Below are positions 3,115 through 24,230 of a stretch of 40,166 bases of DNA, one piece after another. The stretch is from positions 1 to 40,166 of the IMG/VR virus record IMGVR_UViG_3300005573_000164, one strand, 5' to 3'. The position numbers were made by a program, and so were the translations under genes. This stretch comes from a virus (taxonomy: Duplodnaviria; Caudoviricetes). Numbering within the stretch: position 1 is the stretch's first letter; each line of letters opens with the position of its first letter. The notes beneath the pieces were generated by a model. The model was not told the DNA's origin. It saw only the letters and a program-made list of their open reading frames with translations, and searched no databases.

Positions 3115-3117
3115 GCC

Positions 3118-3948
3118 ATGCCGATATTCAAAGCCAATAATCTGCCCGTCCTGATCGAGCAACCGGAATCCGGCGAGTGCGAATTTCAGGCCGATGGCCA
3201 ACTATTAATCACGCGGGTCTTCAAAACCCTCAACTACGAAAATGCGTACAACGATGCCCCGCGCCCTGGCGACCCCGACCCGCACGGTCTGACGGCCCGA
3301 TGTTTCGATACGAAGATAGAACGGATTGCGGCCGGGCTGGATGCAGCCGGCAACGAAGTGCCTGCGTGGTGCAAGATCACGTCGCAATATCTCGGCTACC
3401 TCTACATGCCACCGGCCCGGGTGGAACTGATTTCCGCGCGCATGGACCGGCCCATCGAGCAACACCCGGATTTTAATGACACCAGCAAGTTCGGCAGATA
3501 CGCCGGCGATCCGGGAGATGCCCCCATCACCAAGATGCGGGAATGGAGCCAGATGGGCGGATGGAGTTTCAAACAGTTCTATGTCACGGACTCGACACAA
3601 TGGGCGGCCAAACCCCCGACCAAACCCAACGAGCCGGGCGACTGGATTCAGTGCAATGTATCCGGCAAATTTAGGGGAATAGATTCTTACATGGTCCCGA
3701 CGTGGCATTGGCGCGTGACGGATTATCTTTTGCTCCCCGATAGCCCAAACCGGCTGTTCAAACTGGATACGCCGCCATCGGTTCTCATCTGGGATACTTA
3801 CGTTTCCCCACCCGGGACCGGTAACAACAAGTACCTCAAGGTGCAACATGATGTGGTGAACATCCTCAAAGGCCGGGCCGTACTGTGGGAGCGGACCCGG
3901 TCGTGGCTGTATTTCGATGTGGGTTGGATGCCGGAGATCTACGGTTGA
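3118..3948 (+). CDS. Tail tip / distal tail structural protein (putative)
   Basis: 276 aa immediately after the tape measure gene; assigned by position only. Confidence 0.55.
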   Translation: MPIFKANNLPVLIEQPESGECEFQADGQLLITRVFKTLNYENAYNDAPRPGDPDPHGLTARCFDTKIERIAAGLDAAGNEVPAWCKITSQYLGYLYMPPARVELISARMDRPIEQHPDFNDTSKFGRYAGDPGDAPITKMREWSQMGGWSFKQFYVTDSTQWAAKPPTKPNEPGDWIQCNVSGKFRGIDSYMVPTWHWRVTDYLLLPDSPNRLFKLDTPPSVLIWDTYVSPPGTGNNKYLKVQHDVVNILKGRAVLWERTRSWLYFDVGWMPEIYG

Positions 3949-4634
3949 ACCTGTTCAATAATCTTCTGCTGGCAGAAATTGGCAAGCAAGCCGCGTTCGC
4001 TCGATGGGTGCGCAAGTTGGTCGGCCACCTGAACAGCTTGGTGCTGACCGTTGAACCGCCGCTGTACCTGCGGGACGATGGGCCGCATGGCAAGCATTTG
4101 AGCATTAGACTGAGTTCGACACCGCCACCGGAAATGCCGGTGATTAAGCACCCGTTCCAGATTTACCAATACACGCCCGATCCGGAAAACCCGCAAGTCT
4201 CCGATTGGCGAACCGTGCGGGTAAACGAGGGCTACCTGAACGCGAATAAGGGCTGGTCGAGCTTGAACTTTGACACATCTTATGTCCTCAATGCATCAAC
4301 GACCTATCACTTCTGGCTGGAGGTCACCCTCAATACGAGCGGCGATTACATCGGTTGGCCATCTGACGTAAAGGTTGATCGTGGAACCGAGGGCTGGACG
4401 AATTACCCTGACCAGCCGTTGGGGAATTCTGAGACTGGTGCGCCGCCGAGCAAATACTACATCGAGGTGGCTACCGTTACGACGAGTAACGATACGAACA
4501 AAGTGCTGACGATCACGCCGGTTGAGTATGGCAACAAACGGGTGGAGATGGGTGTTGTCGGATGGAGCGTGAACACGGCCAATTTGTGGTGTCTTGTGCG
4601 CCGAATGGTCCATTGGAGCACCGATGCCTGTTGA
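3945..4634 (+). CDS. Tail tip structural protein (putative)
   Basis: TTG start at 3945 overlaps the upstream TGA (TTGA coupling). Beta-rich; lies in the tail module. Confidence 0.5.
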   Translation: MNLFNNLLLAEIGKQAAFARWVRKLVGHLNSLVLTVEPPLYLRDDGPHGKHLSIRLSSTPPPEMPVIKHPFQIYQYTPDPENPQVSDWRTVRVNEGYLNANKGWSSLNFDTSYVLNASTTYHFWLEVTLNTSGDYIGWPSDVKVDRGTEGWTNYPDQPLGNSETGAPPSKYYIEVATVTTSNDTNKVLTITPVEYGNKRVEMGVVGWSVNTANLWCLVRRMVHWSTDAC

Positions 4635-5367
4635 CCTTACCATTCTGACAATCAGCGGCTGGACGGGCGGAGAGACTGCGCCGTACCCGCCGCCGATGTT
4701 TCCTCGCCTCTTGTCAGGGCGTTATGGTGGCTTATCCAGGAACTACCCGATGTGTCCACGCTCGCAACTCTGGTACGGGCCGGCATTCCCTGAGCTTCCT
4801 TGCAAGATTGAGGTGTTAAATGATGAAGATCTTGTCAAGGAATGGGTGATATGGCGAGAAAACGCCGGGCATTGGCAATATGTGAAAGACATAATTGTTG
4901 AGATTCCAACAGCACCTCAATTCTGCCCAAATAATGGGACAGTTGAGGGGATTGGCTCATGGTCGGGCACTCTCATAGACAGTCTTTACGGTGTGGAAAC
5001 TGAGATCGGTAATGCAAGCGGTACCTTTGGCCTGAAGCATATCTGTCAACGAGAAACAATCAGTGAAGGGACTTGGGCCTGGATGGAGCTATATTTGACG
5101 ATGAAGGTCAACGAGTCTGATGGCAACGGGATAGGATCAGAACGGGGGTTCAATTTTGATCCACTTATTTTGCAGGGATATGAACAATTTAATTATTCAG
5201 GCCATGAGACGCTTAGCTATGCAACAACTGGTTCGGAGGACCCAGACTTTTATCCTTTTCCCTTCAGTCCTGGTCCCGGTCCTTTATCATGGTTCTTCGG
5301 CAGCACAGTTCAATCTCCAAACATCACGATAAAGATTCAACTCGATACATCGCTTTGGCCGATATGA
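4624..5367 (+). CDS. Hypothetical tail/receptor-binding-region protein, low-GC
   Basis: ATG at 4624 overlaps the end of the upstream gene; codons are visibly more AT-rich than its neighbours. Confidence 0.5.
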   Translation: MPVDLTILTISGWTGGETAPYPPPMFPRLLSGRYGGLSRNYPMCPRSQLWYGPAFPELPCKIEVLNDEDLVKEWVIWRENAGHWQYVKDIIVEIPTAPQFCPNNGTVEGIGSWSGTLIDSLYGVETEIGNASGTFGLKHICQRETISEGTWAWMELYLTMKVNESDGNGIGSERGFNFDPLILQGYEQFNYSGHETLSYATTGSEDPDFYPFPFSPGPGPLSWFFGSTVQSPNITIKIQLDTSLWPI

Positions 5368-5446
5368 GGTTGACCGCCGCGCTGGAACAGGCGCAAGCGG
5401 CCTCAGCAGCGGCCGGCGCGGTGGGCGGCCTTGTTGCGGAGGATAA

Positions 5447-5472
5447 TTGACACTAACCGATAGATTGAGATG
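5447..5472 (+). promoter_or_regulatory. TTGAC-N~18-ATG late-gene motif
   Basis: TTGACA at 5447 and ATG at 5470 (23 nt apart); the same spacing occurs at 34922/34945 and 35477/35500. Confidence 0.55.
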
Positions 5473-6363
5473 AATTTCGATTACCATTACGACCTGATCA
5501 TCAATCTCGCCGGCGGGCCAACCGGGGCGCTTTTGAAATCCACAACCAGCCTGGCCGCGGGCCCCAAGCCGGTCTGGAAGCAGAACGATAATTTCAATCT
5601 CCGGCTGTGGTTCGTCACCCCCGGCGCCACCCTGGCGGACCCGCCCATTCTGACGCCGCTTGATGACGATGCTGTGATCGCGCTCGGGGCGAGGCCGAAG
5701 AGCAACTTGGAAGACGATGGGCTGTTGTTCTTTGTCACGGACTTCACACCGATCATGGAAGGGTCGCCGCCCACGGTAACGCACTACGAAAAGTTTTTGA
5801 ACCTGAACACCACGGCGCTCAATACCGCCTTGCAGGGCAAGTCCAAGCTGGAAGTCGTCGTTGATTTGGAGATCCGGAACGCGGACGACACCCAACGCAT
5901 CACCATTCCGCAGTTTGATGCCACAATTCTCCGCGACATCTACCGCGGCACCGAAGGCGTCCCAATTGAAGGAAATCCCGTTTACCCGGTCCCGTCAGCG
6001 ATTGAGCTTGTCGCGCGCAAAGGGCAGCCCAATGGCTACGCGCCACTCGATGACAACGGCTTGGTGCCGGCGGAACATCTCATCCTGCCGTCCGCGCTGA
6101 TAATCAAACTCACCCTCACCGACAACGAAACTTTGACATTGCCGGAAGGATTGACGGATGGCCAAGTGGTGCGATGGTGGATTACGCAGGGCGGCGACGG
6201 CGGCTACACGCTCACCCCATCCGAGGATTTCATCCTGCCCAACGGCATCACCGAGCTGACCCTCTCCACAACGCCAGGCTCATGCGACCTGCTCATCGGG
6301 GAATATCATGCCGACTCTGGCAAGATGTACCTCACCGGCCTGATCCTCTACACCGCCAACTAA
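5470..6363 (+). CDS. Tail fibre / baseplate-attachment protein
   Basis: 297 aa; contains KGQPNGYAPLDDNGLVP, a motif type common in phage tail fibres; precedes the repeat protein. Confidence 0.6.
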   Translation: MNFDYHYDLIINLAGGPTGALLKSTTSLAAGPKPVWKQNDNFNLRLWFVTPGATLADPPILTPLDDDAVIALGARPKSNLEDDGLLFFVTDFTPIMEGSPPTVTHYEKFLNLNTTALNTALQGKSKLEVVVDLEIRNADDTQRITIPQFDATILRDIYRGTEGVPIEGNPVYPVPSAIELVARKGQPNGYAPLDDNGLVPAEHLILPSALIIKLTLTDNETLTLPEGLTDGQVVRWWITQGGDGGYTLTPSEDFILPNGITELTLSTTPGSCDLLIGEYHADSGKMYLTGLILYTAN

Positions 6364-6375
6364 GGGGTGCTCCAA

Positions 6376-8460
6376 ATGGCTATCAACAAAGCAACAGTCA
6401 TCACTTACGACGATCAAGACCAAGACCAAGTCGCAGCCCTTGCTGCCTTGGTTAGCGCAGGGGCAGTTAACAATGGACACGGTATTGCTTCCGGGGACGA
6501 GACTTATTACACAGCCGGCATCCTCGACGTCTACGGTAACCAAAACGCCACCGGCATCCTCGACGCCAATGGTGAACATAAAGCCGCCGGCATTATAGAT
6601 TCCGGCGGAGTTTATAAGTCCACTGGCATCCTCGACGTCAACGGCGACTACTACGGCGTCGGCATCATCGACTCCAACGGCTACTACAACGCCACCGGCA
6701 TCCTCGACGCCAATGGTGAACGTAACGCCACCGGCATCCTCGACGTCAACGGCGACTACTACTACGCCGGCATCATCGATGGATACGGCGACTACAACCA
6801 CCACGGCATCGTTACCTCATTCGGTGACCGCTACGACGACGGCATCCTCTGGGACTCTGATGGCAATGGATGGATGGTAAGGGAGGCCACCGGCATCCTC
6901 GACCTCAACGGAGACTACAACGCCACCGGCATCCTCGACCTCAACAGTAACTTCAATTCCACCGGCATCCTCGACCTCAACAGTAACTTCAATTCCAGCG
7001 GCATCCTCGACTCCAACGGCTACCGCTACAGCCGCGGCATCTTCGACGTCAACGGCAACGTCAATACCACCGGCATCCTCGACGTCAACGGCGACTACTA
7101 CTACGCCGGCATCCTCGACTCCAACGGCGACTACTACGGCAGCGGCACCATCGATGTCAACGGTAACTTCAATCCCAACGGCATCCTCGACGGATATGGC
7201 AATCACTATGATACGGGCATCCTCGACTCCAACGGCTACCGCTACAGCCGCGGCATCCTCGACGCCAATGGTGAACGTAACGCCACCGGCATCCTCGACG
7301 CCAATGGTGAACGTAACGCCACCGGCATCCTCGACTCCAACGGCGACTACTACTACGCCGGCATCATCGATGGATACGGCGACTACAACCACCACGGCAT
7401 CGTTACCTCATTCGGTGACCGCTACGACGACGGCATCCTCTGGGACTCTGATGGCAATGGATGGATGGTAAGGGAGGCCACCGGCATCCTCGACCTCAAC
7501 GGAGACTACAACGCCACCGGCATCCTCGACCTCAACAGTAACTTCAATTCCACCGGCATCCTCGACCTCAACAGTAACTTCAATTCCAGCGGCATCCTCG
7601 ACTCCAACGGCTACCGCTACAGCCGCGGCATCTTCGACGTCAACGGCAACGTCAATACCACCGGCATCCTCGACGTCAACGGCGACTACTACTACGCCGG
7701 CATCCTCGACTCCAACGGCGACTACTACGGCAGCGGCACCATCGATGTCAACGGTAACTTCAATCCCAACGGCATCCTCGACGGATATGGCAATCACTAT
7801 GATACGGGCATCCTCGACTCCAACGGCGACTGCCGCGCCGCTGGCATCTTCGATGGGACGACTTGGTACGCTTCTGGTGGCTTGAGTAACTCCGGGAATT
7901 ACGGAGCCACCGGTGGTTTACTTGATGGCGATTGGATTCCTGATGGAGCGTTGAGAACTGGTGTATGGGACACCGCCGCCGCAGTTTGGGATGGCTCAAA
8001 TTGGCAGTATGGTGGTATCGTTTATGGTTCGACTGAAATCGGGCTAGGGACTTACGCCGCTACCGGCATCCTCGACGTCAACGGCGACTACTACGGCAGC
8101 GGCACCATCGATGTCAACGGTAACTTCAATCCCAACGGCATCCTCGACGTCAACGGCGACTACTACGCCACCGGCATCCTCGACCCCAGCGGTAACTTCA
8201 ATTCCAGCGGCATCCTCGACGTCAACGGCGGCTACTACGCCACCGGCATCCTTGACCTCAGCGGTAATTTCAATACCAGCGGCATCCTCGACTTCGGCGG
8301 CACCTACTACGGCGTCGGCATCATCGATTCCAACGGCTACCGCTATAGCCTCGGCATCATGGACGCCAACGGCAACTACAACGCCACAGGCACCCTAGAC
8401 GTTTTTGGAAATTACATTCCGCTGCGAGACGGGTTCGGCGGCGGGGTGTTCACGTTATAA
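6376..8460 (+). CDS. 12-aa tandem-repeat (xTGILDxNGxYY) acidic fibre-like protein
   Basis: About 47 GILDxNG-type repeats of 36 bp; D/N/G/Y-rich; sits at the end of the tail module; ATG at 6376. Confidence 0.75.
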   Translation: MAINKATVITYDDQDQDQVAALAALVSAGAVNNGHGIASGDETYYTAGILDVYGNQNATGILDANGEHKAAGIIDSGGVYKSTGILDVNGDYYGVGIIDSNGYYNATGILDANGERNATGILDVNGDYYYAGIIDGYGDYNHHGIVTSFGDRYDDGILWDSDGNGWMVREATGILDLNGDYNATGILDLNSNFNSTGILDLNSNFNSSGILDSNGYRYSRGIFDVNGNVNTTGILDVNGDYYYAGILDSNGDYYGSGTIDVNGNFNPNGILDGYGNHYDTGILDSNGYRYSRGILDANGERNATGILDANGERNATGILDSNGDYYYAGIIDGYGDYNHHGIVTSFGDRYDDGILWDSDGNGWMVREATGILDLNGDYNATGILDLNSNFNSTGILDLNSNFNSSGILDSNGYRYSRGIFDVNGNVNTTGILDVNGDYYYAGILDSNGDYYGSGTIDVNGNFNPNGILDGYGNHYDTGILDSNGDCRAAGIFDGTTWYASGGLSNSGNYGATGGLLDGDWIPDGALRTGVWDTAAAVWDGSNWQYGGIVYGSTEIGLGTYAATGILDVNGDYYGSGTIDVNGNFNPNGILDVNGDYYATGILDPSGNFNSSGILDVNGGYYATGILDLSGNFNTSGILDFGGTYYGVGIIDSNGYRYSLGIMDANGNYNATGTLDVFGNYIPLRDGFGGGVFTL
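6688..7827 (+). repeat. Internal near-identical duplication, 6688-7236 vs 7279-7827 (offset 591 bp)
   Basis: Direct comparison: the unique segment HHGIVTSFGDRYDDGILWDSDGNGWMVREA occurs twice. Confidence 0.9.
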
Positions 8461-11983: not shown

Positions 11984-12205
11984 TCACCGGACAGGTGTTG
12001 TTGAATGATTGTTCGACACGCGGACATGCTGGCCTCGCGCGCCGTAGTATTCCATCACCGAGTCGGGAGTCGGGAAGCATCCCGACACCGGGCAGAGCCG
12101 ACGTTGTTTGAAGGCGCGCTGTATGGCCTTCACCTTTTTTTGGTCGGGCAGTGCATCTACGATGGCCGCTCCCAATGGTGTGATTGTGAAGCTCTTGTCT
12201 TTCAT
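11984..12205 (-). CDS. Cassette 1 hypothetical protein
   Basis: 73 aa with an AAGGAG RBS; lies mainly between core GTTCGAC (12011) and inverse core GTCGAAC (12224) and ends past the core. Confidence 0.65.
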   Translation of the reverse strand: MKDKSFTITPLGAAIVDALPDQKKVKAIQRAFKQRRLCPVSGCFPTPDSVMEYYGARGQHVRVSNNHSTTPVR

Positions 12206-12918
12206 GGTTTCTCCTTCTTCGGTGTCGAACCCGGCGTTTCAGCCAACCTCGTCAGACTCGGCGGCTGAACTTTGTCGTTGGCCGCATGGCGCGAGTCCAA
12301 GGTTACTTGTCCGCCGCGCAGGTCCACGAACGCTCCTTTGATTCGCAGGTTCTCGATGGCGTCCCGTATCGCATTCGCATTGTCATCGTCCCACGCCACG
12401 AGCATGGACGGTGCGCCAGCCGTCCCGCCTTTCGTGCCGTTCACATGGTAGAAGCTCAGTCTCCCTTTGAGGAAGCATACCGCTGTCGCACGCGGCCATA
12501 TGTAGGTAAAGAATTGTTGGGTTTCGGTGCGCGCGAAGATGAGGGCGGTGCAGTTCTTGTGTTCGGCGCACCGGCGCATCCACTCTCCCGTCTTTGGGCC
12601 GTAGGGCGGGTTGCACCACACGCGCCCGCGCCATTCTTTGAGCAGGCCGTTGTCCCTGATTGTGTAGTGTTGTTTCGCAGTCGGCCACGGGCGGTTTATC
12701 GGGGCGCATGGGTCTAGGTCGAAGTCGCCCAGTGCGCGGAAGATTTCTGGCGGGGTGAGCCATTCTTCTTTGCCGTTTTCGAGGTCGCGGTCGTGCGCGA
12801 ATCCGATGCGCTTTTCTTCTGGCATTACCGGAGCGGCCAACAAATCGCTGCACGCAACGGCTTGCGCCGCCGCGTTCCGCTGGTCAGGGGCTTCGGTGAG
12901 AGCCATTTGTTGTGTCAT
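12202..12918 (-). CDS. DNA N6-adenine methyltransferase (phage Dam-type), cassette 2
   Basis: EWLTP, FDLDPCA, WCNPPYG and RTET motifs; ATG at 12918 with an AAGGAG RBS inside attC C. Confidence 0.88.
   Translation of the reverse strand: MTQQMALTEAPDQRNAAAQAVACSDLLAAPVMPEEKRIGFAHDRDLENGKEEWLTPPEIFRALGDFDLDPCAPINRPWPTAKQHYTIRDNGLLKEWRGRVWCNPPYGPKTGEWMRRCAEHKNCTALIFARTETQQFFTYIWPRATAVCFLKGRLSFYHVNGTKGGTAGAPSMLVAWDDDNANAIRDAIENLRIKGAFVDLRGGQVTLDSRHAANDKVQPPSLTRLAETPGSTPKKEKP
12224..12283 (+). mobile_element. attC site B (60 bp)
   Basis: GTCGAAC CCGGC GTTTCAGC ... GCTGAAC TTTGTC GTTGGCC; extra base in L''. Confidence 0.9.
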
Positions 12919-12960
12919 ACGTTTTCTCCTTTTCCGCCGTGCGTGAGCTTGGCGTTCCCT
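12835..12960 (+). mobile_element. attC site C (126 bp)
   Basis: GGCCAAC AAATC GCTGCACG CAACGGC ... GCCGTG CGTGAGC TTGGC GTTCCCT; two extrahelical bases on the left arm. Confidence 0.9.
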
Positions 12961-12964
12961 GGAT

Positions 12965-13612
12965 TCATCGCCGTTCCTCCGGTTGCACGTAGGGCAGTCC
13001 GACGAAGGCGAAGACTTCGGCCTCTGATTCCATCGCTCGCGTCTCGCCGGCGCGCGAGAACCCAGCGCCGTATGGATTCCACTTCCATCCACGAGCTTGA
13101 GCAGCCATACAGATTCGCATGTTGCTGGCCGCCGGGCCGGTTCGGCAGACGAGATAGTTCCACCAGTTCTCCGTCGTAGCCGCGAACAAGTCCACTGGAA
13201 TGCCGCTGGCGCGGTGGCGCATCAGCTTGTTTTTCGGCCCATACATTTCCGACCCGTTCGCGTTCTTGCGGCGTTCGAGTACGCCAGACTTTTCGAGCGA
13301 GGCGATTGTTTCGTCCGCTAGATTTACCGTGAGGCTGGCGAACATATCGGCGGGGTCTTGCCGCACTTCGGTTTTGCCGATGTAGAGGATTTCCACGTCG
13401 CCAACGGTCGGCTCGCGGCGGCGCAGCGAGCCAGCGACGATGAGGCGTTCACACACCGGCTTGAGTGCGGCGCAGAGTTCGGCGGCGACCTTCATCCCGA
13501 CAGCATTCGGGAAGCGCGGCTTCCCGCCAACCGGGGAACAATGCGCTGCTGCCAATGACTGCCCGCGTTGGGCATTATTGGCAGAACCTACGTTGTTGGC
13601 GCGGGTATTCAT
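12965..13612 (-). CDS. polX: Minimal X-family DNA polymerase / nucleotidyltransferase (palm+thumb only), cassette 3
   Basis: AGSLRR..TVGDVEIL, IPVDLF, RTGP..SN and SEAEVFAFVGLPYVQPEER motifs of PolX; no lyase, HhH or PHP domain. Confidence 0.8.
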   Translation of the reverse strand: MNTRANNVGSANNAQRGQSLAAAHCSPVGGKPRFPNAVGMKVAAELCAALKPVCERLIVAGSLRRREPTVGDVEILYIGKTEVRQDPADMFASLTVNLADETIASLEKSGVLERRKNANGSEMYGPKNKLMRHRASGIPVDLFAATTENWWNYLVCRTGPAASNMRICMAAQARGWKWNPYGAGFSRAGETRAMESEAEVFAFVGLPYVQPEERR

Positions 13613-13632
13613 GGCGGAGCTAATCGTTCTGC
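13533..13632 (+). mobile_element. attC site D (100 bp)
   Basis: GGGGAAC AATGC GCTGCTGC CAATG ... CATG GCGGAGC TAATC GTTCTGC. Confidence 0.85.
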
Positions 13633-13633
13633 G

Positions 13634-14017
13634 TCATTTGAGGGTTGCGTTCCATCTCCAGCCTGTGTGTTTCCCGAGTGCTATATCCACGGTTACAGTG
13701 TCGCCTTTATTCAAGCTCGCCCACCGCTCTGCGCTCGTGCCGACCGCGATGACTTCGTTGCCTATATCTACGATCACCGTCCACTTCTCAGGCTCGCTAC
13801 TTGTTATCGTTACAACGCCGGCTTTTCCTCCGCTGCCCACAGCTACGCCGGTGCCTGTTTGGGTGCTACTTGGCGTGTAGACCTTCTCTACGACTTTGCC
13901 GGCGTGTTCTTCGTGTCGGAAGCTGCACGAGACGCAGAATAATACGCCGCACGCAATGGCTGCAGCCGTTGCGATTCGTCGGCGTGCCGTGCCGGTGGAG
14001 GTCGGTGATTGATTCAT
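13634..14017 (-). CDS. Small exported protein/lipoprotein, cassette 4
   Basis: Hydrophobic signal ending CVSC, then a beta-rich body; start and RBS (AAAGGAAACC ATG) are inside attC E. Confidence 0.7.
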   Translation of the reverse strand: MNQSPTSTGTARRRIATAAAIACGVLFCVSCSFRHEEHAGKVVEKVYTPSSTQTGTGVAVGSGGKAGVVTITSSEPEKWTVIVDIGNEVIAVGTSAERWASLNKGDTVTVDIALGKHTGWRWNATLK

Positions 14018-14062
14018 GGTTTCCTTTCGATGCTGCCGCCGTGCATGATCTTTTAGTTAGCC
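13934..14062 (+). mobile_element. attC site E (129 bp, R'' AAC>AAT)
   Basis: GCAGAAT AATAC GCCGCACG CAATGGCTGCAGC ... GCTGCCGCCGTG CATGATC TTTTA GTTAGCC; GACGCAGAAT complements the upstream core GTTCTGCGTC. Confidence 0.75.
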
Positions 14063-14295
14063 GCAGAGCCGGTCAGCCACACGGCACGCCCTACGAGTTC
14101 CATTTCTTCCCACGTTGCCCGGTAGTAGGCTTGTCCGCCCATCTTGCCGTCAGCACCGAGAGCTTGGACGTAGCCTTGTGCGCCCCACGACTTCGGTTCG
14201 CTCACCGTCATCATGCACGCACCGAGCATCGGGTTCTTGCACTTCTCCGGGTTGAGTTGCACGACCATTCCGGCTTCGAGTTCTGTCTTTTGCAT
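14053..14295 (-). CDS. Cassette 5 hypothetical (SH3-like small beta) protein
   Basis: 80 aa with an AAAGGA RBS; ends AAN* at the R' of attC E. Confidence 0.7.
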   Translation of the reverse strand: MQKTELEAGMVVQLNPEKCKNPMLGACMMTVSEPKSWGAQGYVQALGADGKMGGQAYYRATWEEMELVGRAVWLTGSAAN

Positions 14296-14317
14296 TTGTT
14301 CCTTTCAGTTATTCGGC

Positions 14318-14378
14318 GGCCAACAATTCGGTTCAGCCAACTCGCGTAGGACGCTCGCGGCTGACCTCCCCGTTTGGA
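14318..14378 (+). mobile_element. attC site F (61 bp)
   Basis: GGCCAAC AATTC GGTTCAGC ... GCTGACC TCCCC GTTTGGA. Confidence 0.88.
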
Positions 14379-14596
14379 CAAATCTCAAAGTTTGCATCAG
14401 CAAAGTCTCCATTGCAGTCCCACACCATTTTCCCGTCTTTGTACAGATAGGCCCACCTGTTTCTTCCAACCCCTTTTATCCGCAGTTCGTAGGGCGCATA
14501 GTGCGGCGAGATGTAGGCTAGTGCTATGCCGATTGGCCGAACCATGCGCCGAAGCGAACGGCGGGATTTCTTGGCCGGTTGATTGTCAGTGGGCAT
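14333..14596 (-). CDS. Cassette 6 hypothetical protein
   Basis: 87 aa; starts in the attC G loop (GGAGG RBS) and stops in L'' of attC F. Confidence 0.65.
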   Translation of the reverse strand: MPTDNQPAKKSRRSLRRMVRPIGIALAYISPHYAPYELRIKGVGRNRWAYLYKDGKMVWDCNGDFADANFEICPNGEVSRERPTRVG

Positions 14597-14643
14597 TTGA
14601 GCCTCCGTGGTTGTTTGCGACGGCGCTTGGCTTACCGTTGGGC
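14536..14643 (+). mobile_element. attC site G (108 bp)
   Basis: GCCGAAC CATGC GCCGAAGC ... GCTTGGC TTACC GTTGGGC. Confidence 0.8.
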
Positions 14644-14930
14644 GTGATTGTCACGCGCACTGGTTGGGGTTGTGCCAGCCGTGAGGCTGTGCTATAGGTC
14701 TGGACACTTTTTGATGTAGCCGTCTCTCGAAGGCGTCGTGCACGCGCTAAAAGGTCTTCCCGCAGAAAAGCGAGACGCTCTTTTTCAGCTTCTGTTCGCC
14801 ACGGATCAGGCACTAAGAGAGTTGCAGTCGCTTCCAGGTGGGCCGCCACCGCGAGAGTGATGAGTCGTTCTGTTTCATAATGAGATTGCTTTATGATTTT
14901 TCTCGTTGCCGTGCCATTGGGAGTCTTCAT
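14586..14930 (-). CDS. Cassette 7 hypothetical (chimeric) protein
   Basis: 114 aa with a strong AGGAGG RBS; its 3' part derives from a frameshifted copy of the 15474-15536 sequence. Confidence 0.5.
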   Translation of the reverse strand: MKTPNGTATRKIIKQSHYETERLITLAVAAHLEATATLLVPDPWRTEAEKERLAFLREDLLARARRLRETATSKSVQTYSTASRLAQPQPVRVTITPNGKPSAVANNHGGSNAH

Positions 14931-15141
14931 TGCTTATATCCTCCTACGCGAGATTTGCCGACTGGTTGGTGGAGTCGCTGCTTTGCTCGCATATCTTTTT
15001 GTGATCGGGCTTGCCATCACGCTTGTGGTGGTCTTGGCCGGTCTCGTCTGGCAGTTTATTGTTTGGGTGTTTCCGTATGTCCTCGGCGGCGCTGCCGTCA
15101 TCGCTATTATTGCTTTCATCGTAAAGGCGGCTCGCAGGTGA
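14893..15141 (+). CDS. Small multi-TM membrane protein in conventional (sense) cassette orientation
   Basis: 82 aa, almost entirely hydrophobic; its stop codon lies 6 nt before R'' of attC H. Confidence 0.5.
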   Translation: MIFLVAVPLGVFIAYILLREICRLVGGVAALLAYLFVIGLAITLVVVLAGLVWQFIVWVFPYVLGGAAVIAIIAFIVKAARR

Positions 15142-15759
15142 TACCGCGCCCATCAATTCGGGACAGCGAACGGGCGAGGACGCCCGTCGCTGACCTCCGG
15201 TGTTCGGCACAAATTCCAAGCATGTTTCAGAGCCGTCATTGTATCGGTACAAGTCCGCAGTCGGCGGACACGAGGCGCGGATACAGCAGTCTGCGCACAG
15301 TGTTCCCTGTCCTCGCGGAGGTTGCGGCACGGGTGGCAGTGGCGGCGTCCATCGCTCGCAGCCGCACGATGGGCAGCTTGTCCTGTTCCAGTAGAGCACT
15401 CCGCAGCTGGCGCAGTGCCGAACCATCCGATGAGCCGAACATGAGGGAGCGAGGCGGCGCTCACTGGTGATGGGTTGGGGGTAGTGCCAGCCGTGAGGCT
15501 GTGCTTGTAGGTCTGGACACTTTTTGATGTAGCCGTATCGTTCCACTATCCACTGCCGTGCCTTCTCGCGGGTCACAAAGAGTTTCGGCAGAAAGTTTTC
15601 TCGGAGCAGGTATTGCGTGATCCCGCTGTAGTTCTCCGAGTGCCACATCGCACCCCACGCCGAACAAACTAGATGCCGCGACCCATGACCACGCGGCGCG
15701 GCTTTTTCCCCGTTTTTCGCCTTTGTAGGTGTACGTTTTTTCATATCAGACTTCCGCAT
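14944..15759 (-). CDS. Read-through fusion ORF spanning cassettes 9 and 8 (Cys-rich, zinc-ribbon-like) and attC I/H
   Basis: 271 aa; N-terminal domain, then CxxC pairs (CASC, CPSC, CADC); the tail is the antisense of the 14893-15141 ORF. Confidence 0.55.
   Translation of the reverse strand: MRKSDMKKRTPTKAKNGEKAAPRGHGSRHLVCSAWGAMWHSENYSGITQYLLRENFLPKLFVTREKARQWIVERYGYIKKCPDLQAQPHGWHYPQPITSERRLAPSCSAHRMVRHCASCGVLYWNRTSCPSCGCERWTPPLPPVPQPPRGQGTLCADCCIRASCPPTADLYRYNDGSETCLEFVPNTGGQRRASSPVRCPELMGAVSPASRLYDESNNSDDGSAAEDIRKHPNNKLPDETGQDHHKRDGKPDHKKICEQSSDSTNQSANLA
15148..15208 (+). mobile_element. attC site H (61 bp, R'' AAC>ATC)
   Basis: GCCCATC AATTC GGGACAGC GAACGGGCG AGGA CGCCCGTC GCTGACC TCCGGT GTTCGGC. 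Confidence 0.85.
15417..15475 (+). mobile_element. attC site I (59 bp, R' GTT>GAT)
   Basis: GCCGAAC CATCC GATGAGCC ... GGCGCTC ACTGGT GATGGGT; GTGCCGAAC perfectly complements the core at 15202. Confidence 0.65.
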
Positions 15760-15799
15760 CCGTCCTTCTCATAGCTGCCTTCAACACGGTATATTCGGG
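15659..15799 (+). mobile_element. Degenerate attC site J
   Basis: GCCGAAC at 15659 and ATTCGGG at 15793 (the upstream gene reads SPN through it); internal pairing is poor. Confidence 0.35.
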
Positions 15800-16002
15800 C
15801 TGCGAGACTTCACCCATTCGAGTGCGAAGTTCTCGGTAGCCGATGTGATTGCGGTCTCCCATCGGTTATTGCGGCCGCGCTGTTGCACTGTCCAGCGGTC
15901 GCCTTCTATGCGTGGCGGTTTGATTCGGTAGCCAGCTATGATGCGGCACTTCTTCTTGGTATCCGGAATGCTCGGCTCGCGGAATTTCAGCACATAGCTC
16001 AT
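15781..16002 (-). CDS. Hypothetical protein
   Basis: MSYVLKFREP..., 73 aa; ATGA overlap with the methyltransferase stop; AAGGAA RBS. Confidence 0.6.
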   Translation of the reverse strand: MSYVLKFREPSIPDTKKKCRIIAGYRIKPPRIEGDRWTVQQRGRNNRWETAITSATENFALEWVKSRSPNIPC

Positions 16003-16658
16003 TGTTTCCTTTCTTGCCAGCAGTTCGCCAGGAAGAAAGCCCGTGCGAAACCGCATGGTGTTGCAGAGCGTAGTTCTTTCGTTCGTTCGGACTTCCCGCC
16101 GAGTTTCTGCACCCAGCTTCCCTGCGAACAGACTCGTTGTGGGGTCACTTCGTTTCTCGGCAGTGCCCGGTTGAAGTGGCCGTAGAGCGCAGTTTTTTTC
16201 GTCCACGGGTCGCCATACCACCACGGCTCGAAGTACCAAGGCTTGCCCAGTTCCGGCAGCAGCTTGTGGAGTCGCCCCACCGGGTTTTCGAGTGCCCACC
16301 AGTCCGGTTTGCAGAAATCCACGCAGCGGAGCACCTGTCGCACGAGTTCCAGGCTCTTTTCCGTGCGCCCGTCCGCGTCTTTCACTTTCCAGTATTGTGC
16401 CCCGCTCGCCGCGAAGTCGGTGCAGGGTGGCGCGGCGAGTATCCCGTCCACCGTGCCGAACTTATCCATCACGTTTTCCATCAGCCAGGCTGCGCTGAGT
16501 TCCATCACGTCGATTCCGTGCTTGAGGTCTATCTGCACCACGTTCGCGCCCGCCTCCAAGTACGGAGCAGACCAGTTCCCAGTGTAGTCAAAGAGCGATA
16601 GGATGGTCCGACCGCTGCAATCCACGATTAAGGACTTGGTGATCATCGCTGGACTCAC
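15999..16658 (-). CDS. Short phage-type C5 cytosine DNA methyltransferase
   Basis: ILSLFDYTG (motif I-like), AAPPCTDF (catalytic PC) and WALENPVG (motif VI); start is GTG 16658 or ATG 16646. Confidence 0.85.
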   Translation of the reverse strand: MSPAMITKSLIVDCSGRTILSLFDYTGNWSAPYLEAGANVVQIDLKHGIDVMELSAAWLMENVMDKFGTVDGILAAPPCTDFAASGAQYWKVKDADGRTEKSLELVRQVLRCVDFCKPDWWALENPVGRLHKLLPELGKPWYFEPWWYGDPWTKKTALYGHFNRALPRNEVTPQRVCSQGSWVQKLGGKSERTKELRSATPCGFARAFFLANCWQERKQ

Positions 16659-16676
16659 TGAGCCGCAGCGTTAAAA
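16602..16676 (+). mobile_element. Degenerate terminal attC site K
   Basis: The right arm ACTGAGC CGCAGC GTTAAAA is canonical; the left arm GATGGTC CGACC GCTGCAAT has lost AAC. Confidence 0.45.
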
Positions 16677-18559: not shown

Positions 18560-18588
18560 ATAATATGTATATACCCTGTATATGTCAA
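18560..18588 (-). promoter_or_regulatory. Sigma70 promoter of the replication/cassette operon
   Basis: TTGACA-17nt-TATTAT with the ATG 8 nt further on (leaderless-like); TGCGCA palindromes at about 18555 and 18614. Confidence 0.8.
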
Positions 18589-20401: not shown

Positions 20402-21079
20402 CTAACGGATCTTCGACTGCAAGCCCATCACGCAGGCCCGGTAACTCAGATGCCCCCCAATGACGGCGCCGGGCATGTCAGTCACCTTCGGCGCAGGCCC
20501 GCGCTGGCCGGCTTCCTTCCACAGATTGCGCAGCCAATCGTTGGCCGTGGGCATCAACACCGTGGCGCGGGACTCGAATTCCAGTTGCTCGCACCGGGTG
20601 GTGAACCGCCGGTCCATCGCGTCGGGCTCGTTGGTGGTGAAGATCCAGATGGCGTTCGGTGGCGGGTAATCCAGCAGATGCAGGAACACCTGCTTGGCAT
20701 CATCGCGGAGCTTGTCGGCTTCGCTGACGGCAATGACCTTCCACCCGGTCTTGTTCATGGCGGCATACCACGCCGAGCGCATCCGTTGATCCACGTCCCC
20801 CGCCGTCAACGTCACGGCGCACAGGTCGAAGAACCCGCTCATTTGCGCGCGGAGTTCGCCGCCCTCAATGTCGCATCCTAATGCCCTGGCCAACACGCGG
20901 GCCGTACAAGACTTCCCGCAGCCGGTCGCCCCATAAAACAGGAACGCGGCGGCATACGGGTTGGCGACGAACCGTTGGAGCCGGTCCACGACGGCCGCCT
21001 GCCCTTGAATCTCGTTAAACGTCAGCGGCGCGAGCGTCTTGGTCAGGGATTTTTGGGTATGGAATCGTTTGGTCATCAT
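20402..21079 (-). CDS. Clamp-loader-like AAA+ ATPase (DnaX/RFC family)
   Basis: PLTFNEIQGQ, FLFYGATGCGKS (Walker A), VSEADKL (altered Walker B), WIFTTN and TRC (SRC-like). Confidence 0.82.
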   Translation of the reverse strand: MMTKRFHTQKSLTKTLAPLTFNEIQGQAAVVDRLQRFVANPYAAAFLFYGATGCGKSCTARVLARALGCDIEGGELRAQMSGFFDLCAVTLTAGDVDQRMRSAWYAAMNKTGWKVIAVSEADKLRDDAKQVFLHLLDYPPPNAIWIFTTNEPDAMDRRFTTRCEQLEFESRATVLMPTANDWLRNLWKEAGQRGPAPKVTDMPGAVIGGHLSYRACVMGLQSKIR

Positions 21080-21258
21080 GGTGTCCTTTCTTTCTTGGTG
21101 CGGTCTGGAGTGGGATGGTACGACTCCAACCGGTTTTCGATCTCGATGCAGCGGGCACACGCCCAACAGCCCCATTTGTAGATTGTCCCCACTGCCCCAC
21201 ACGCGCAGAGTCGGGGACGATTCAGTTTCCGCTTCTCTCGGCAGTGGTTGGTACGCAT
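21076..21258 (-). CDS. Small Cys-rich protein
   Basis: CAC...CARC; AAGGAG RBS; coupled to the ATPase gene. Confidence 0.5.
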   Translation of the reverse strand: MRTNHCREKRKLNRPRLCACGAVGTIYKWGCWACARCIEIENRLESYHPTPDRTKKERTP

Positions 21259-21382
21259 ACGGTCTCCTTGGTGGGGTAGTGGCAGACGATGCAGCCGTCT
21301 TGCCCGTCTGGTCGGTTATAGAGCATCCATCCAGACGTTGTGTTCATGCCGCGCGAGCTTGCAATGGTGAATCTTGGCGTCT

Positions 21383-21664
21383 TCATGGGCTGGCTCTCGG
21401 CGGCTGAGCTTGAGCGTTAGGAGCAATCCACTCGCCGCCGTCAGAGTGTATCCGCACCTTGCCGGTCTTGGTGATGTAGATTTGCAGTCCGCGTTTGTGT
21501 TTTGGCGTTTCAATTCCGAGTGTCACCCATCCCTTTTTCTCATCGGAGAAGTAGCGTTGCACTTTTGCCGCGCCCCACTCGAATCCATATTTGGTTTCTT
21601 GGTAGTGCATAAAGCTCCTAACAACGTGGATGCAGCGAACGCTGATCCGCTGCGTTGCCGCCAT
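21383..21664 (-). CDS. Hypothetical protein in an isolated inverted cassette
   Basis: The body lies between core GTTAGGAGC (21416) and inverse core GCTCCTAAC (21614-21622). Confidence 0.7.
   Translation of the reverse strand: MAATQRISVRCIHVVRSFMHYQETKYGFEWGAAKVQRYFSDEKKGWVTLGIETPKHKRGLQIYITKTGKVRIHSDGGEWIAPNAQAQPPRASP
21398..21422 (+). mobile_element. attC right half-site (L'-R')
   Basis: CGGCGGCTGAGCTTGAGCGTTAGGA is a canonical attC 3' end; no left arm was found. Confidence 0.7.
21616..21660 (+). mobile_element. Mini attC site (45 bp)
   Basis: TCCTAAC AACGTG GATGCAGC GAAC GCTGATC CGCTGC GTTGCCG. Confidence 0.75.
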
Positions 21665-22385
21665 TTTTGACGCCTTTACCCCTCAACATCACGGCGCCGA
21701 TGAAAGTCAGAGCAGCACGATACTCTGCTGCATACTGATCATTACCGTGCACTTCTTGCAATTTTTCCTCAAAGTATTCCATGCTTCCAAAGAAGCATCC
21801 GGTTTGCAAACGCACACCTTTGTCTGTCAAGAACGCCGCCAGGTATGAGTTTCTAGAGCCAAGCTGCCCTATGCATAACATAGCACGATTTGATCCCAAA
21901 ACCACGGAACCGTCTTTCAACTTCGCACCAGCCAACTTCGCACCAGCCAACTTCGCACCAGCCAACTTCGCACCAGCCAACTTCGCATTGGCCAAGTTTG
22001 CCCCCGCCAAGTACGCACCGGCCAAGTTTGCACGAGCCAAGTTTGCATAGGCCAAGTACGCACCGGCCAAGTTTGTATTATCCAAGTACGCACCGGCCAA
22101 GTTTGCACCGGCCAAGTTTGCATAAGCCAAGTTTGCACAGGTCAAGTTTGTACAGGTCAACTTTGCATCAGCCAAGTTTGCATCAGCCAACTTTGCACCG
22201 GCCAAGTTTGCATCAGCCAACTTTGCACCGGCCAAGTTTGCACCGGCCAAGTTTGTATCAGCCAAGTTTGCCTCAGCCAAGTTTGCACCAGCCTTAGCTG
22301 CAGCTTCGAGGCATTGTTTGATATTTTCAGCTTCAAGCGAGAACAGCACGCTTCCATCCCATCGATTTTTTATTTCAACTTTCAT
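21618..22385 (-). CDS. Pentapeptide repeat protein
   Basis: About 25 A(N/K/Y)LA(G/D/Y) repeats, with the N-terminal [11 protein letters not shown] and C-terminal GSRNSYL...GCFFG typical of phage versions. Confidence 0.92.
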
Positions 22386-22458
22386 TGCTTTTCCCCCCCG
22401 TGGTTTGCGAACCCAGTTTGTATTTCATTTTAGGTCTCCTTTCTCTCCTTTGAATATT

Positions 22459-22562
22459 GTGGGCAGGCGGTGGGTCCGCAGGCGGCACATGCCGCCCACA
22501 GGAACGCCGCTAGATGGCGTAAACCCCCGGCACAATGCCGATGGCTCCAGCCGCCTGCCCAC
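22459..22562 (-). ncRNA. Candidate cloverleaf (four-way junction) structured RNA
   Basis: A 12-bp closing stem GTGGGCAGGCGG/CCGCCTGCCCAC encloses three hairpins; intergenic. Confidence 0.5.
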
Positions 22563-22607
22563 GCTTTTGATGGTCGGTGGATTTAGTTTGGTTTCATATT
22601 GTCCTCC

Positions 22608-23015
22608 TTAATCCCAATACGGTTCGGCGATTTTGGTTGGTGTCCGGCCTTCGGCGCGGTCAATATATTCGCGCCAAGCATCCTGCGAACTCATGATCAG
22701 CACGCCGTGCGGGTGAACTGGGCCGTCCAAGCCCAACAATTTGCCAAGCTCCGCACGCTCCGCCGGTGACATGCTGCCGTAACACGGCGCGCCGGTGTCA
22801 TATTCCTCGTAATCTTCCGGCAAGCTTGTGACGGCGCCGGCTTTCAACCGGCATGACCAAGTACGGCGCGCAGGTGGCGCGTTAATCTTGATCCAGCCCC
22901 ATGCCGTACCCCGTCCGCCGGTCACGCTCCACGTCTTGCCACTCCGCCGCTTCAACGCAGCCTGGATTCGCTTGATGGCACCGTCCCTTGTGATTCCCGT
23001 GGTCATGGCATTCAT
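22608..23015 (-). CDS. Hypothetical early protein
   Basis: AGGAGGT RBS before ATG 23015; ...IQAALKRRSGKTWSVTGGRGTAWGWIKI... Confidence 0.7.
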   Translation of the reverse strand: MNAMTTGITRDGAIKRIQAALKRRSGKTWSVTGGRGTAWGWIKINAPPARRTWSCRLKAGAVTSLPEDYEEYDTGAPCYGSMSPAERAELGKLLGLDGPVHPHGVLIMSSQDAWREYIDRAEGRTPTKIAEPYWD

Positions 23016-23238
23016 TGCATCACCTCCTCTTCGACAAACTTCACCAATTCTTGGGGGTTTCCTTTCATGCATTCCTTTCTGCGCCTCTGGCGCGTTGTGA
23101 AGGTGGCCGTAGTAACGGCGCCGTGCGGCAGCTTTGGCTGCGAGCGTCATGCCTGCTATTTCCCGGCCACGCTTCGATTATTCTGCGGGTTCGGATTTGG
23201 CAGCGGAACAGACCGCCGCCGGTTGACACTTCTCGGAT

Positions 23239-23787
23239 TTAGTTGGCGGAATGGAACAACTGATCAATCTCAGCCGGGGTGAGAAACCGGCCAGCTTGAG
23301 CATCCCACGCCGATTTGATGCGGACGCCACTGGCGATGATTTCGCCGGCATCCCGCCAGTCTTGATAATATTCCAAGCCGCCGGTCGGCGACTGGCTGGC
23401 ATCGCCCTCGATGCCGTACCGTTTGCCGTTCCAGTTGCAGGCGGTGAACAATTTATCTGGATGCGTGAACAAGCCCCGGTGGTCTTTCTCGCCCGGCTTC
23501 ACGCCGTCGCAGTTGTACTTGAACGGCTCAACAAGTGTGCCGTCCGGCTTGATCTGGTCGGCGATGAGTTCCACCAGCTCCATCGGGTTCCGCATCCCGC
23601 CATGCTCCTGCAATACTTCCAGCGTGATACTGCACAGTTCGGCAACTTGTCCTGGCACACCGAATCGGGTCAGGACATGGTGGCAGTTCGCGTCGCCGAT
23701 GGCGCGCAAACCGTGTGGATGTTTGGCGCGGATCTCCACCAGCGCGCCGTACACGGCATCGAGTGTTTCTTGTTTTGTCATGCCCAT
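23239..23787 (-). CDS. Hypothetical protein (N-terminus shared with 25805-26134)
   Basis: The N-terminal ~66 aa are encoded by the 643-bp repeat; the C-terminus is unique. Confidence 0.6.
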   Translation of the reverse strand: MGMTKQETLDAVYGALVEIRAKHPHGLRAIGDANCHHVLTRFGVPGQVAELCSITLEVLQEHGGMRNPMELVELIADQIKPDGTLVEPFKYNCDGVKPGEKDHRGLFTHPDKLFTACNWNGKRYGIEGDASQSPTGGLEYYQDWRDAGEIIASGVRIKSAWDAQAGRFLTPAEIDQLFHSAN

Positions 23788-24230
23788 TCCTCCTTCAGCC
23801 GCATTTCCCGCCAACGCCTGGCTTGGTCACCCCGCGCATGTTTTTCCTGAAGAGCGGCCTTCCGCAACGATTCATCCGGCCACGGTTTGCGATGACAACC
23901 TTCCCGGTACAGGTTACGGCCCTTGATCAGAAGCTTCCTACCATCGCTCAACTGCAACATGAACGTATGCTGTTGCTTGCTGGCACCATAGCTATCCCGG
24001 ATGATTTTGCCTTCAATCGTTTCCATCCCGAGAAACTTCGGATTGCGCCAACTCCCGCCGAAGCGCGCCCGCTCAAAACAAACTTCATCTCCGACTACTG
24101 CATCACCGGTGCAGTCTATCGTATATTGCTCAGTCTTCATCTTTGATCTCCTTTCCTGTGGTTTGTTCCGCCGCCTTGTACTTCAACTTCTGCTTCTGCA
24201 CGCTGCAATCGGCCCGCGGTATGTCATCCC
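23588..24230. repeat. 643-bp direct repeat, copy 1 (copy 2 at 25935-26577)
   Basis: Identical by eye, offset 2347 bp; identical ORFs at 23778-24140 and 26125-26487. Confidence 0.95.
23778..24140 (-). CDS. Hypothetical protein (duplicated)
   Basis: 120 aa with an AAGGAG RBS. Confidence 0.75.
   Translation of the reverse strand: MKTEQYTIDCTGDAVVGDEVCFERARFGGSWRNPKFLGMETIEGKIIRDSYGASKQQHTFMLQLSDGRKLLIKGRNLYREGCHRKPWPDESLRKAALQEKHARGDQARRWREMRLKEEWA

Follow-up and report, generated by a model that had tools for sequence, protein, structure and literature searches.

The window analysed here, the whole 40,166-nt stretch that constitutes the phage record, carries an integron-type row of gene cassettes with attC-like sites B to J oriented on the top strand (+), while the cassette genes lie mostly on the bottom strand, a layout that mirrors bacterial arrays. 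Since the genes are on the bottom strand, each long site stands at the head of its own gene, with the predicted start codon of that gene inside it. We consider it probable that the phage carries a bottom-strand cassette row of this kind, in which a stop codon in the frame that crosses the site joint as asparagine (the Asn frame) likely hands ribosomes from any upstream cassette to the start in the head. Site geometry and polarity, gene strand, and the putative ATG and N-terminus inside sites C, D, E and G are read from the sequence, as are the exchange of neighbours between AA and C of R' in relatives, the Asn-frame rule, the stop–start overlaps and the relay ORFs.

Organization of the cassette array

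The features of the array are as follows.

11984–12205, −: cassette B gene; start in the body with its own Shine-Dalgarno (SD) sequence, ATG overlapping the Dam gene stop (ATGA)
12011–12017, +: left array boundary and likely insertion point; core box with complementarity to R'' of B, read across in the Asn frame
12202–12918, −: adenine methyltransferase (Dam; PF05869, phrog_111); start inside attC C
12224–12283, +: attC B, 60 nt; translated in full as the Dam methyltransferase C-terminus
12835–12960, +: attC C, 126 nt; SD AAGGAG, ATG 12918, Asn-frame TGA overlapping the ATG
12915–12968, −: 17-codon relay ORF; overlaps the PolX stop at its start and the Dam ATG at its end (ATGA in both cases), reading R' of C as Asn in between
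12965–13612, −: PolX-like protein (PF14791, PF14792); start inside attC D
13533–13632, +: attC D, 100 nt; ATG 13612, no SD, Asn-frame TAG 10 nt before the ATG
13620–13637, −: 5-codon relay ORF, from the E gene stop into attC D
13634–14017, −: E gene, 127 aa; N-terminus signal-peptide- or lipoprotein-like by eye and encoded mostly in attC E
13934–14062, +: attC E, 129 nt; R'' core AAT, SD AAAGGA, ATG 14017
14053–14295, −: cassette F gene (phrog_19062); start in the body with its own SD, stop directly after the Asn codon of site E
14318–14378, +: attC F, 61 nt; no start
14333–14596, −: G gene, 87 aa; 23 phmmer hits, ends inside F in the Asn frame
14536–14643, +: attC G, 108 nt; SD GGAGG, ATG 14596, Asn-frame TGA 8 nt after the ATG
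14893–15141, +: candidate hydrophobic ORF, 82 aa; stops 6 nt before R'' of H
15148–15208, +: attC H, 61 nt; R'' core ATC
15417–15475, +: attC I, 59 nt; degenerate R' core (GAT), in-frame read-through, ATG 15426 within the spacer
15659–15718, +: attC J, 60 nt; no internal start, crossed in the Asn frame by an ORF from 15759 or 15744
15999–16646, −: C5 methyltransferase (phrog_757)
16602–16676, +: K, doubtful attC relic, 75 nt; R'' degenerate, ATG 16646 inside
18560–18588, −: sigma-70-type promoter match TTGACA-17-TATTAT, 11/12; consensus match only

A geometric detector found 4 sites between positions 12000 and 16800, against a mean of 0.14 (maximum 2) in 100 doublet shuffles; at a lower score, scattered matches occurred elsewhere in the window. 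Pairing of L'' with L' around an extra-helical base, with 5–6 nt spacers, comprised 6–7 of 7 pairs in B, C, D, F, G, H, I and J, and was judged by inspection only in E. The AAC and GTT core triplets of R'' and R' are intact in B, C, D, F, G and J, changed once in E (R'' AAT for AAC), H (R'' ATC) and I (R' GAT for GTT), and degenerate in K (R'' GAC for GTT); core triplets are thus damaged at 4 of 10 sites. As in canonical integron cassettes, the outer R bases are complementary between the two cassette ends, agreeing with the far end of the same cassette at 28 of 36 positions, as opposed to 15 of 36 within one site. The computed probability of the recombinogenic fold was 2.5e-3 for B, 3e-5 for C, 2e-2 for D, 3e-6 for E, 7e-2 for F, 1e-2 for G and 1e-4 for J; in this model, folding into the recombinogenic form is unlikely for C, E and J. 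The bottom strand folded better than the top strand at 51 of 77 related phage sites; in C and D the top strand folded equally well or better, and bottom-strand folding was clearly above that of shuffles only for H, with weak z-scores at most sites. Parts of the array (E, H, I, J and K) look decayed. Purine enrichment of the loops found no support as a special phage trait, with a content of 0.56 in phage versus 0.53 in bacterial sites.

The orientation was compared with a bacterial reference of 40 integron regions flanking intI, in which detector polarity agreed with the orientation of intI at 93 of 101 sites. With gene frames called by the longest ORF, 66 of the 76 bacterial cassettes had their gene on the top strand, 3 on the bottom strand, and 7 were tied. 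Among 57 cassettes of phage loci, which were found via the window's own genes and include near-duplicates and non-independent sites within one locus, the gene was on the bottom strand in 38 and on the top strand in 5, with 14 ties. The position of the genes on the bottom strand of attC had not been mentioned in the first-pass annotation. A scan of the genome collection with the site-F pattern, initially used as orientation control, yielded 6 loci, one of them with a (solo) attC, and was replaced by the intI-flanking regions. When the array was compared with annotated phages by BLAST, only the methyltransferase core matched, among the matches listed.

The array contains at least two attC sites of one polarity with no integron integrase nearby, as in a CALIN. 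It departs from the canonical cassette (a top-strand gene with attC at its 3' side and a start in the body after R') in that its genes of known families are on the bottom strand; only the candidate gene at 14893–15141, which has an Atlas score below 0.9, fits that layout. The phage record gave no match to an integron integrase or tyrosine recombinase, and no reverse transcriptase family, as would belong to a group IIC-attC intron, was present among the 53 ORFs scanned. An integron integrase (TIGR02249, 330 bits, cut-off 265) does adjoin an inverted-type array in the related viral locus L044/L079, with weaker matches in L006, L007/L026, L024 and L080. Of attI and Pc, the boundary core box at 12011–12017 is the only candidate counterpart, and the best promoter match lies at the far end and reads along the bottom strand; judged by its consensus, it likely drives an early operon across the array. 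The cassettes would be moved in trans by an integron integrase from the host or another phage, an early promoter would transcribe the whole row, and termination–reinitiation would make expression largely independent of cassette order.

Predicted translation starts within the recombination sites

Sites C, D, E and G each contain an in-frame ATG, and the first 17–30 codons of the predicted proteins run through the L'' and R'' arm. This agrees with the first-pass annotation, which had located the starts 12918, 13612, 14017 and 14596 in these sites and had read the N-termini as translated attC. AAGGAG lies 7 nt upstream of ATG 12918, and ATG 13612 is just within the L' arm of D. The starts of C, E and G lie 42–47 nt into the site. 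The reading does not extend to J: geometry gives a 60-nt site, and the ATG at 15759, formerly placed in J, is 41 nt outside it, and the alternative at 15744 is 26 nt outside. A longer J of approximately 115 nt was rejected, having no recognizable R' triplet and a wrong bulge position, and the J gene found no match in the viral scan, Pfam, PHROG or tblastn on fetched loci. As to the C5 methyltransferase, ATG 16646 is indeed within K, which is at best a relic and, like D, has no Shine-Dalgarno sequence. In relatives L121/L122 the C5 methyltransferase stands behind an intact long attC head, and in run X4 it is replaced at 16640, not at the K crossover.

In the phage set, an in-frame ATG occurred inside attC at 51 of 69 sites (window included), the corresponding counts being 21 of 138 for the other frames and 6 of 36 for bacterial sites. 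It was found in 50 of 64 long sites and 1 of 5 short sites. The proposed rule that long sites carry a start and short ones do not thus describes B and F versus C, D, E and G, but the short site I has an in-frame ATG (15426). Arrays were present in only 5 of 80 loci retrieved with the Dam profile, where the ATG enrichment was weak (5/12 vs 7/24).

Homologues support the ATGs of C, D and G as the probable true starts, as the Dam, PolX and G families have no usable downstream start. Of 31 aligned sequences, only the window's own has the internal Dam methionine. The PolX motif K-P-R-F lies upstream of the first ATG of the body, and 64 of 110 homologues begin no more than 12 residues from it, whereas in 6 of 120 PolX homologues the annotated start is the internal methionine. 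In the G family the conserved core begins at R''. For the E gene, the sequence homologue search returned only the gene itself, and Atlas gave look-alikes without names.

Crossover point, reading frame and proposed translational coupling

Comparative junctions place the exchange between AA and C of R', as in attC. Six PolX relatives match the window up to the AAC and then diverge, P0001 switches neighbours after ..HAAN, and 7 of 18 listed loose contig ends coincide with R' boxes of B, C, F, G and H. A joint in run X4 (14661–15473) was set aside as evidence, because it is weak (25 nt on one side, within a repeat). Since neighbours switch at this point, the head mostly travels with the gene behind it. 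The view that each cassette carries its start in its own site accordingly stands for C, D, E and G, although not for J and K and not strictly, as heads are sometimes exchanged at R'': one PolX body is 94% identical to that of the window, with a head only 51% identical.

Coupling between cassettes looks frame-based, with a stop in one shared frame beside the ATG. In relatives (all following counts exclude the window), upstream frames crossed the joint as an Asn codon in 50 of 56 cases, and the Asn frame stopped inside the site in 73 of 76. That stop was at most 12 nt from the ATG at 42 of 49 sites, 26 of them ATGA overlaps, whereas the other frames reached 10/49 and 5/49. For bacterial bottom strands the count was 18 of 36. 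Where the upstream gene stopped at least 7 nt before the joint, an Asn-frame start overlapped its stop in 7 of 9 genes, giving a relay mini-ORF; four of these seven are PolX homologues. PolX relatives retain the start of the window's 17-codon relay ORF. Within the window, an exact ATGA overlap is seen at C only (and after B), and the Asn-frame stop of E is 38 nt before the ATG.

The first-pass annotation attributed coupling to the mRNA hairpin, and gating of this type, in which the attC stem hides the ribosome-binding site and ATG until an upstream ribosome melts it, has some appeal: according to the parts of PMC8876359 covered, attC stems in mRNA hinder ribosomes and short ORFs inside attC relieve this, a ribosome on a relay ORF would melt the 5' arm, and starts of the phage set have a median opening cost of 10.1 kcal/mol, above the median of 7.7 for 14 ordinary genes of this phage. 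The costs at C, D, E and G (3.1, 9.4, 6.1 and 8.1 kcal/mol) are nevertheless like those of ordinary genes, with C, E and G no more occluded, a modelled ribosome at the upstream stop reduces the cost at C, D and E by no more than 1.3 kcal/mol, and the full hairpin is not the best predicted mRNA fold at these three sites. We thus regard hairpin gating as improbable and the shared-frame stop as the better-supported basis of coupling. It is also rather unlikely that the sites are remnants of past insertions, with starts that arose in purine-rich loops and only still-expressed arrangements surviving, rather than reusable connectors. The damaged triplets, the missing integrase and the low folding probabilities would fit this, as would the purine-rich bottom strands of attC in general (PMC5027507, in the sections covered). 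Against it stand the ATGA overlap, kept in 6 of 10 heads whose present upstream gene stops earlier, the retention of the Asn frame by relay ORFs, and the many different neighbours that relatives have at the same joint.

A crossover at GTT, beside the gene body, would let a site lend its start to whichever gene comes next, and the reassortment of heads and bodies at R'' among PolX and Dam homologues points in that direction. GTT, however, occurs in all three frames (13, 13 and 25 of 51), so that lending would usually cause a frameshift, and extra-helical geometry sets the crossover at R'. Moreover, the interior identity of the 23 site pairs sharing only the upstream body never exceeded 0.61, whereas of 11 pairs sharing only the downstream body one reached 0.86 and three more 0.62–0.66 (background median 0.39). 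We consider this explanation very unlikely. The notion of chance inverted repeats in ordinary phage genes, to which the weak z-scores and scattered low-score matches might be held to point, is largely refuted by the junctions as read in the relatives, and hardly deserves credence given the clustering relative to shuffles, the uniform polarity, the AAC breakpoints and the integrase-linked arrays in related viral loci.

Relation to known systems and implications

The bottom-strand cassette row proposed here resembles phage-borne CALINs, which are attC clusters without integrase that often carry DNA methyltransferase genes, five of whose sites were recombined by IntI1 (PMC9892861); bottom-strand genes or starts inside attC are not described in the sections of that paper covered. 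In our re-analysis TJE1 had the ordinary layout, MW202573 was inverted at both sites that were detected there, where annotated genes run across the joint to end in ..PNV*, and P12002L gave no usable sites with the detector. As in the portions of PMC5027507 and PMC5371416 on integron attC, the phage sites have R'/R'' and L'/L'' boxes, an extra-helical base in the L'' arm, a length of 59–129 nt and exchange between AA and C of R'; unlike there, the gene is on the bottom strand and the site lies 5' of it and forms part of its coding sequence. Phage sites further differ from integron attC in the extra-helical base, mostly C on the bottom strand (top-strand letter G in 60 of 80), and in median length (107 nt in the phage set vs 68 nt). 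Termination–reinitiation across a recombination site also aids the next cassette in the case of ORF-11 of attI1 and short ORFs in attC, which the parts of PMC8876359 and PMC11511950 covered describe as top-strand helpers and exceptions; in the phage arrays it is the gene's own start that lies in the site, under one frame rule across whole arrays. Insertion at a genomic attG, as outlined in the sections of bioRxiv 10.1101/2022.09.11.507474 covered, could found an array in a phage that lacks attI, and 12011–12017 resembles such a point; this would explain the landing place, but not the reversal of the genes. No description of the inverted layout was found in the largely non-subscription literature searched.

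We tentatively offer a broader reading as one possibility: a phage-run, mirror-image cassette system with a universal translation plug, in which ribosomes leave every cassette end in the Asn frame and meet a stop and a start in every head, and in which heads grafted at R'' onto ordinary phage genes may create new mobile cassettes. The PolX family, which occurs without attC, behind several unrelated heads and, in one case, with the head joined 17 nt deeper into the gene, might then represent snapshots of cassette genesis. The arrays would offer a concrete case of ordinary genes becoming cassettes.

By the usual description, integron cassettes hold top-strand genes that are expressed according to how far they lie from one promoter. 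In the phage arrays the gene is reversed, the predicted translation start lies within the recombination site, and shuffled genes are apparently kept in a translational chain. For annotation, this is a warning that variable tails of phage proteins such as ..CSDLLA.. (N-terminal) or ..PNV* (C-terminal) may be translated attC. If true, such arrays would serve phages as a plug-in store of accessory genes, for example methyltransferases.

Site polarity and gene strand

A strict detector found four sites in the array, compared with 0.14 in shuffled sequence. The sites of the array are as follows.

12224-12283, top strand (+), attC-like site B, geometry scan
12835-12960, top strand (+), attC-like site C, geometry scan
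13533-13632, top strand (+), attC-like site D, geometry scan
13934-14062, top strand (+), attC-like site E, by inspection
14318-14378, top strand (+), attC-like site F, geometry scan
14536-14643, top strand (+), attC-like site G, geometry scan
15148-15208, top strand (+), attC-like site H, geometry scan
15417-15475, top strand (+), attC-like site I, geometry scan
15659-15718, top strand (+), attC-like site J, geometry scan
16602-16676, top strand (+), site K, by inspection

Because those array genes that belong to known families are encoded on the minus strand, the bottom strand of these sites, the array is a mirror image of the bacterial layout: it is inverted relative to bacterial cassettes, and each site precedes its gene. 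In our polarity control, 40 bacterial regions from a single phylum, each adjoining an integron integrase, the detector matched the polarity predicted from intI at 93 of 101 sites. Judged by the longest ORF, 76 bacterial cassettes had their gene on the top strand in 66 cases, the bottom in 3 and a tie in 7, while for 57 phage loci the figures were 5 top, 38 bottom and 14 ties.

The 3' end of the J gene occurs twice, as a direct repeat of ~60 nt (14666-14726 and 15478-15539). The 811-nt block between the copies contains a top-strand ORF and sites H and I, and one weak joint in public sequencing run X4 bypasses it. An uninterrupted 271-codon frame (14944-15759, minus strand) runs through J, I and H, joining the J gene to a cysteine-rich segment from 15426 that is zinc-ribbon-like by eye.

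Phage CALINs with methyltransferases have already been published (PMC9892861); the accessible part of that paper does not discuss gene-versus-site polarity or internal starts. Our re-analysis of them found the ordinary layout in TJE1 and the inverted one in MW202573 (2069-3738, our locus L220), whose methyltransferase frame appears to reach upstream past its annotated start, into the preceding site. For top-strand cassettes, both translation through attC and coupling by ORF-11 have been described. No description of an inverted, start-bearing attC type was found in the literature searched.

Predicted translation starts within the sites

The first-pass annotation had placed start codons and ribosome-binding sites inside the attC hairpins. 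ATGs are indeed present within C, D, E and G; measured from the R' end, they lie 42, 20, 45 and 47 nt in. Those in C and D are the predicted starts of the adenine methyltransferase Dam (12202..12918, minus strand) and PolX (12965..13612, minus strand). The proposed start in J falls outside this 60-nt site, and that of the C5 methyltransferase in K was not upheld, as K has no R'' and run X4 replaces the gene at 16640, which is not the K crossover. In relatives L121 and L122 the C5 methyltransferase stands behind an intact head, the site portion before the gene body. Strong Shine-Dalgarno motifs occur at C and G, while those of relatives are mostly weak. The view that long sites bear starts and short ones do not was borne out in the phage set, with an in-frame ATG in 50 of 64 long versus 1 of 5 short sites. 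Such an ATG lay within 51/69 phage sites, versus 21/138 for the other frames and 6/36 in bacteria. A Dam-profile search covering 80 further loci recovered arrays in only 5, where the excess was weak (5/12 versus 7/24).

Only one of 31 aligned Dam sequences, the window's own, has a body methionine ahead of the conserved core. By a rough pattern, 25 of 120 Dam homologues carry a leader with an arm-like motif at its end, and the others start short; in locus L001 a different attC has an ATG inside and the body lacks ATG for 97 codons. Many leaders of Dam homologues P0007-P0037 start M-x-x-L-F (MSDLF, MNELF), with or without an attC arm, a pattern reminiscent of the clamp-binding motif. The PolX K-P-R-F motif lies upstream of the first body ATG; homologues start within 12 residues of it in 64/120 cases, have leaders of at least 20 residues in 32/120 and are called from an internal methionine in 6/120. 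The G gene belongs to a real family (23 matches) whose core starts at R''; a second in-frame ATG, in the spacer, is likewise within site G. A sequence search found no homologue of the E gene, the N-terminus of which is basic and hydrophobic, is mostly encoded by site E and, by eye, reads like a signal peptide.

Reading frame and proposed translational coupling

The mRNA hairpin had been proposed as a translational coupler. Folding did not support this: opening the starts of C, D, E and G cost 3.1, 9.4, 6.1 and 8.1 kcal/mol, while 14 ordinary genes had a median cost of 7.7. The folds give no sign of hidden starts, and a modelled upstream ribosome improved their opening little.

A shared frame may offer another route. 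We examined 76 sites in relatives' loci, excluding the window; because the 17 array-bearing loci are related and partly redundant, the counts overstate independence. The upstream frame crosses 56 of the 76 sites, reading the R' core triplet AAC as a codon (the Asn frame) in 50 of 56. The Asn frame terminates within the site in 73/76, and its stop lies no more than 12 nt from the ATG in 42/49 (26 of them exact ATGA stop/start overlaps), compared with 10/49 and 5/49 in the other frames; the effect was not as strong on bacterial bottom strands (18/36) or phage top strands (19/47). Where the upstream gene stopped at least 7 nt before the joint, an Asn-frame start overlapped that stop in 7 of 9 cases, 4 of which are PolX homologues. 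In the window, the PolX stop overlaps the start codon of a 17-codon ORF, which runs across R' of C and terminates on the Dam ATG, a 5-codon ORF after the E gene ends 10 nt ahead of the PolX ATG, and the Dam frame passes through B and terminates on the next ATG. The Asn-frame stop lies 8 nt past the ATG at G and 38 nt ahead of it at E, where a Shine-Dalgarno motif is present. An upstream gene in the Asn frame would hand its ribosome to the in-site start, directly or via a relay mini-ORF crossing the joint.

Exchange units and possible integrase supply

Six PolX relatives (L011 and L012 counted once) match the 3' end of the window's PolX gene as far as AAC and then continue into six different sites, and P0001, a Dam homologue 94% identical, keeps its head and switches neighbour after ..HAAN. 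Among 18 listed loose contig ends from four public runs (10 more exist), 7 map to R' boxes, namely those of sites B, C, F, G and H; these contigs may come from other phages, and the source sample is possibly run X1 or X2. Interior identity exceeded 0.61 in 0/23 site pairs sharing only the upstream body, and the window and L017 have both head (0.86) and downstream body in common. Because of the AAC/R' junctions, the site-pair identities and the occurrence of R'' GTT in all three frames, we read the mobile unit as head plus gene, with a predicted cut at AA|C. Sequence comparison indicates that heads are also exchanged at or near R'': the L010 body is 94% identical past R'' and its head only 51%, heads and bodies are reassorted at R'' in P0126/P0127 and P0130/P0139, and in L011/L012 the head is joined 17 nt deeper into the gene. 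Recombination of the top strand, with reported rates 1000-10,000-fold lower (PMC5027507), is a possible cause.

The window, all 40,166 bases of a complete virus record, has direct terminal repeats. Family searches placed a lambda-type terminase, portal, head protein and tail genes on the plus strand and the early region on the minus strand, where a sigma-70-type promoter match (18588-18560) reads toward the array. A family 2 glycosyltransferase (34112-35035, plus strand) lies between portal and head genes. The region 20402-25287 (minus strand) encodes a clamp-loader-like AAA protein, a pentapeptide-repeat protein and a WGR-domain ATP-dependent DNA ligase, which may form a repair module with PolX. 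Two 120-aa ORFs (23778-24140 and 26125-26487, minus strand) have identical DUF7699 scores, which suggests a duplicated segment. A single named homologue, together with one Atlas cluster, hints at a Verrucomicrobiota host.

Searches of the record found neither an integron integrase nor another tyrosine recombinase. In related viral loci an integrase adjoins the inverted-type array; such arrays have the usual site polarity relative to intI, and their genes point toward it. Locus L079 has 13 detected inverted sites (513-5840) and its own integron integrase (6001-6984), downstream on the gene strand; one of its heads ends VACSDLLA, as does the window Dam head, yet leads another gene. In the control phylum, an integron integrase scores above cut-off in 87 of 301 genomes, which makes supply in trans plausible for the window. 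Several window sites look decayed, and folding probability is low for C, E and J; low values have been tied to reduced excision (PMC5371416). We conclude that the window array is a real, partly decayed example of inverted, start-bearing attC, with a well-supported architecture and an inferred mechanism.
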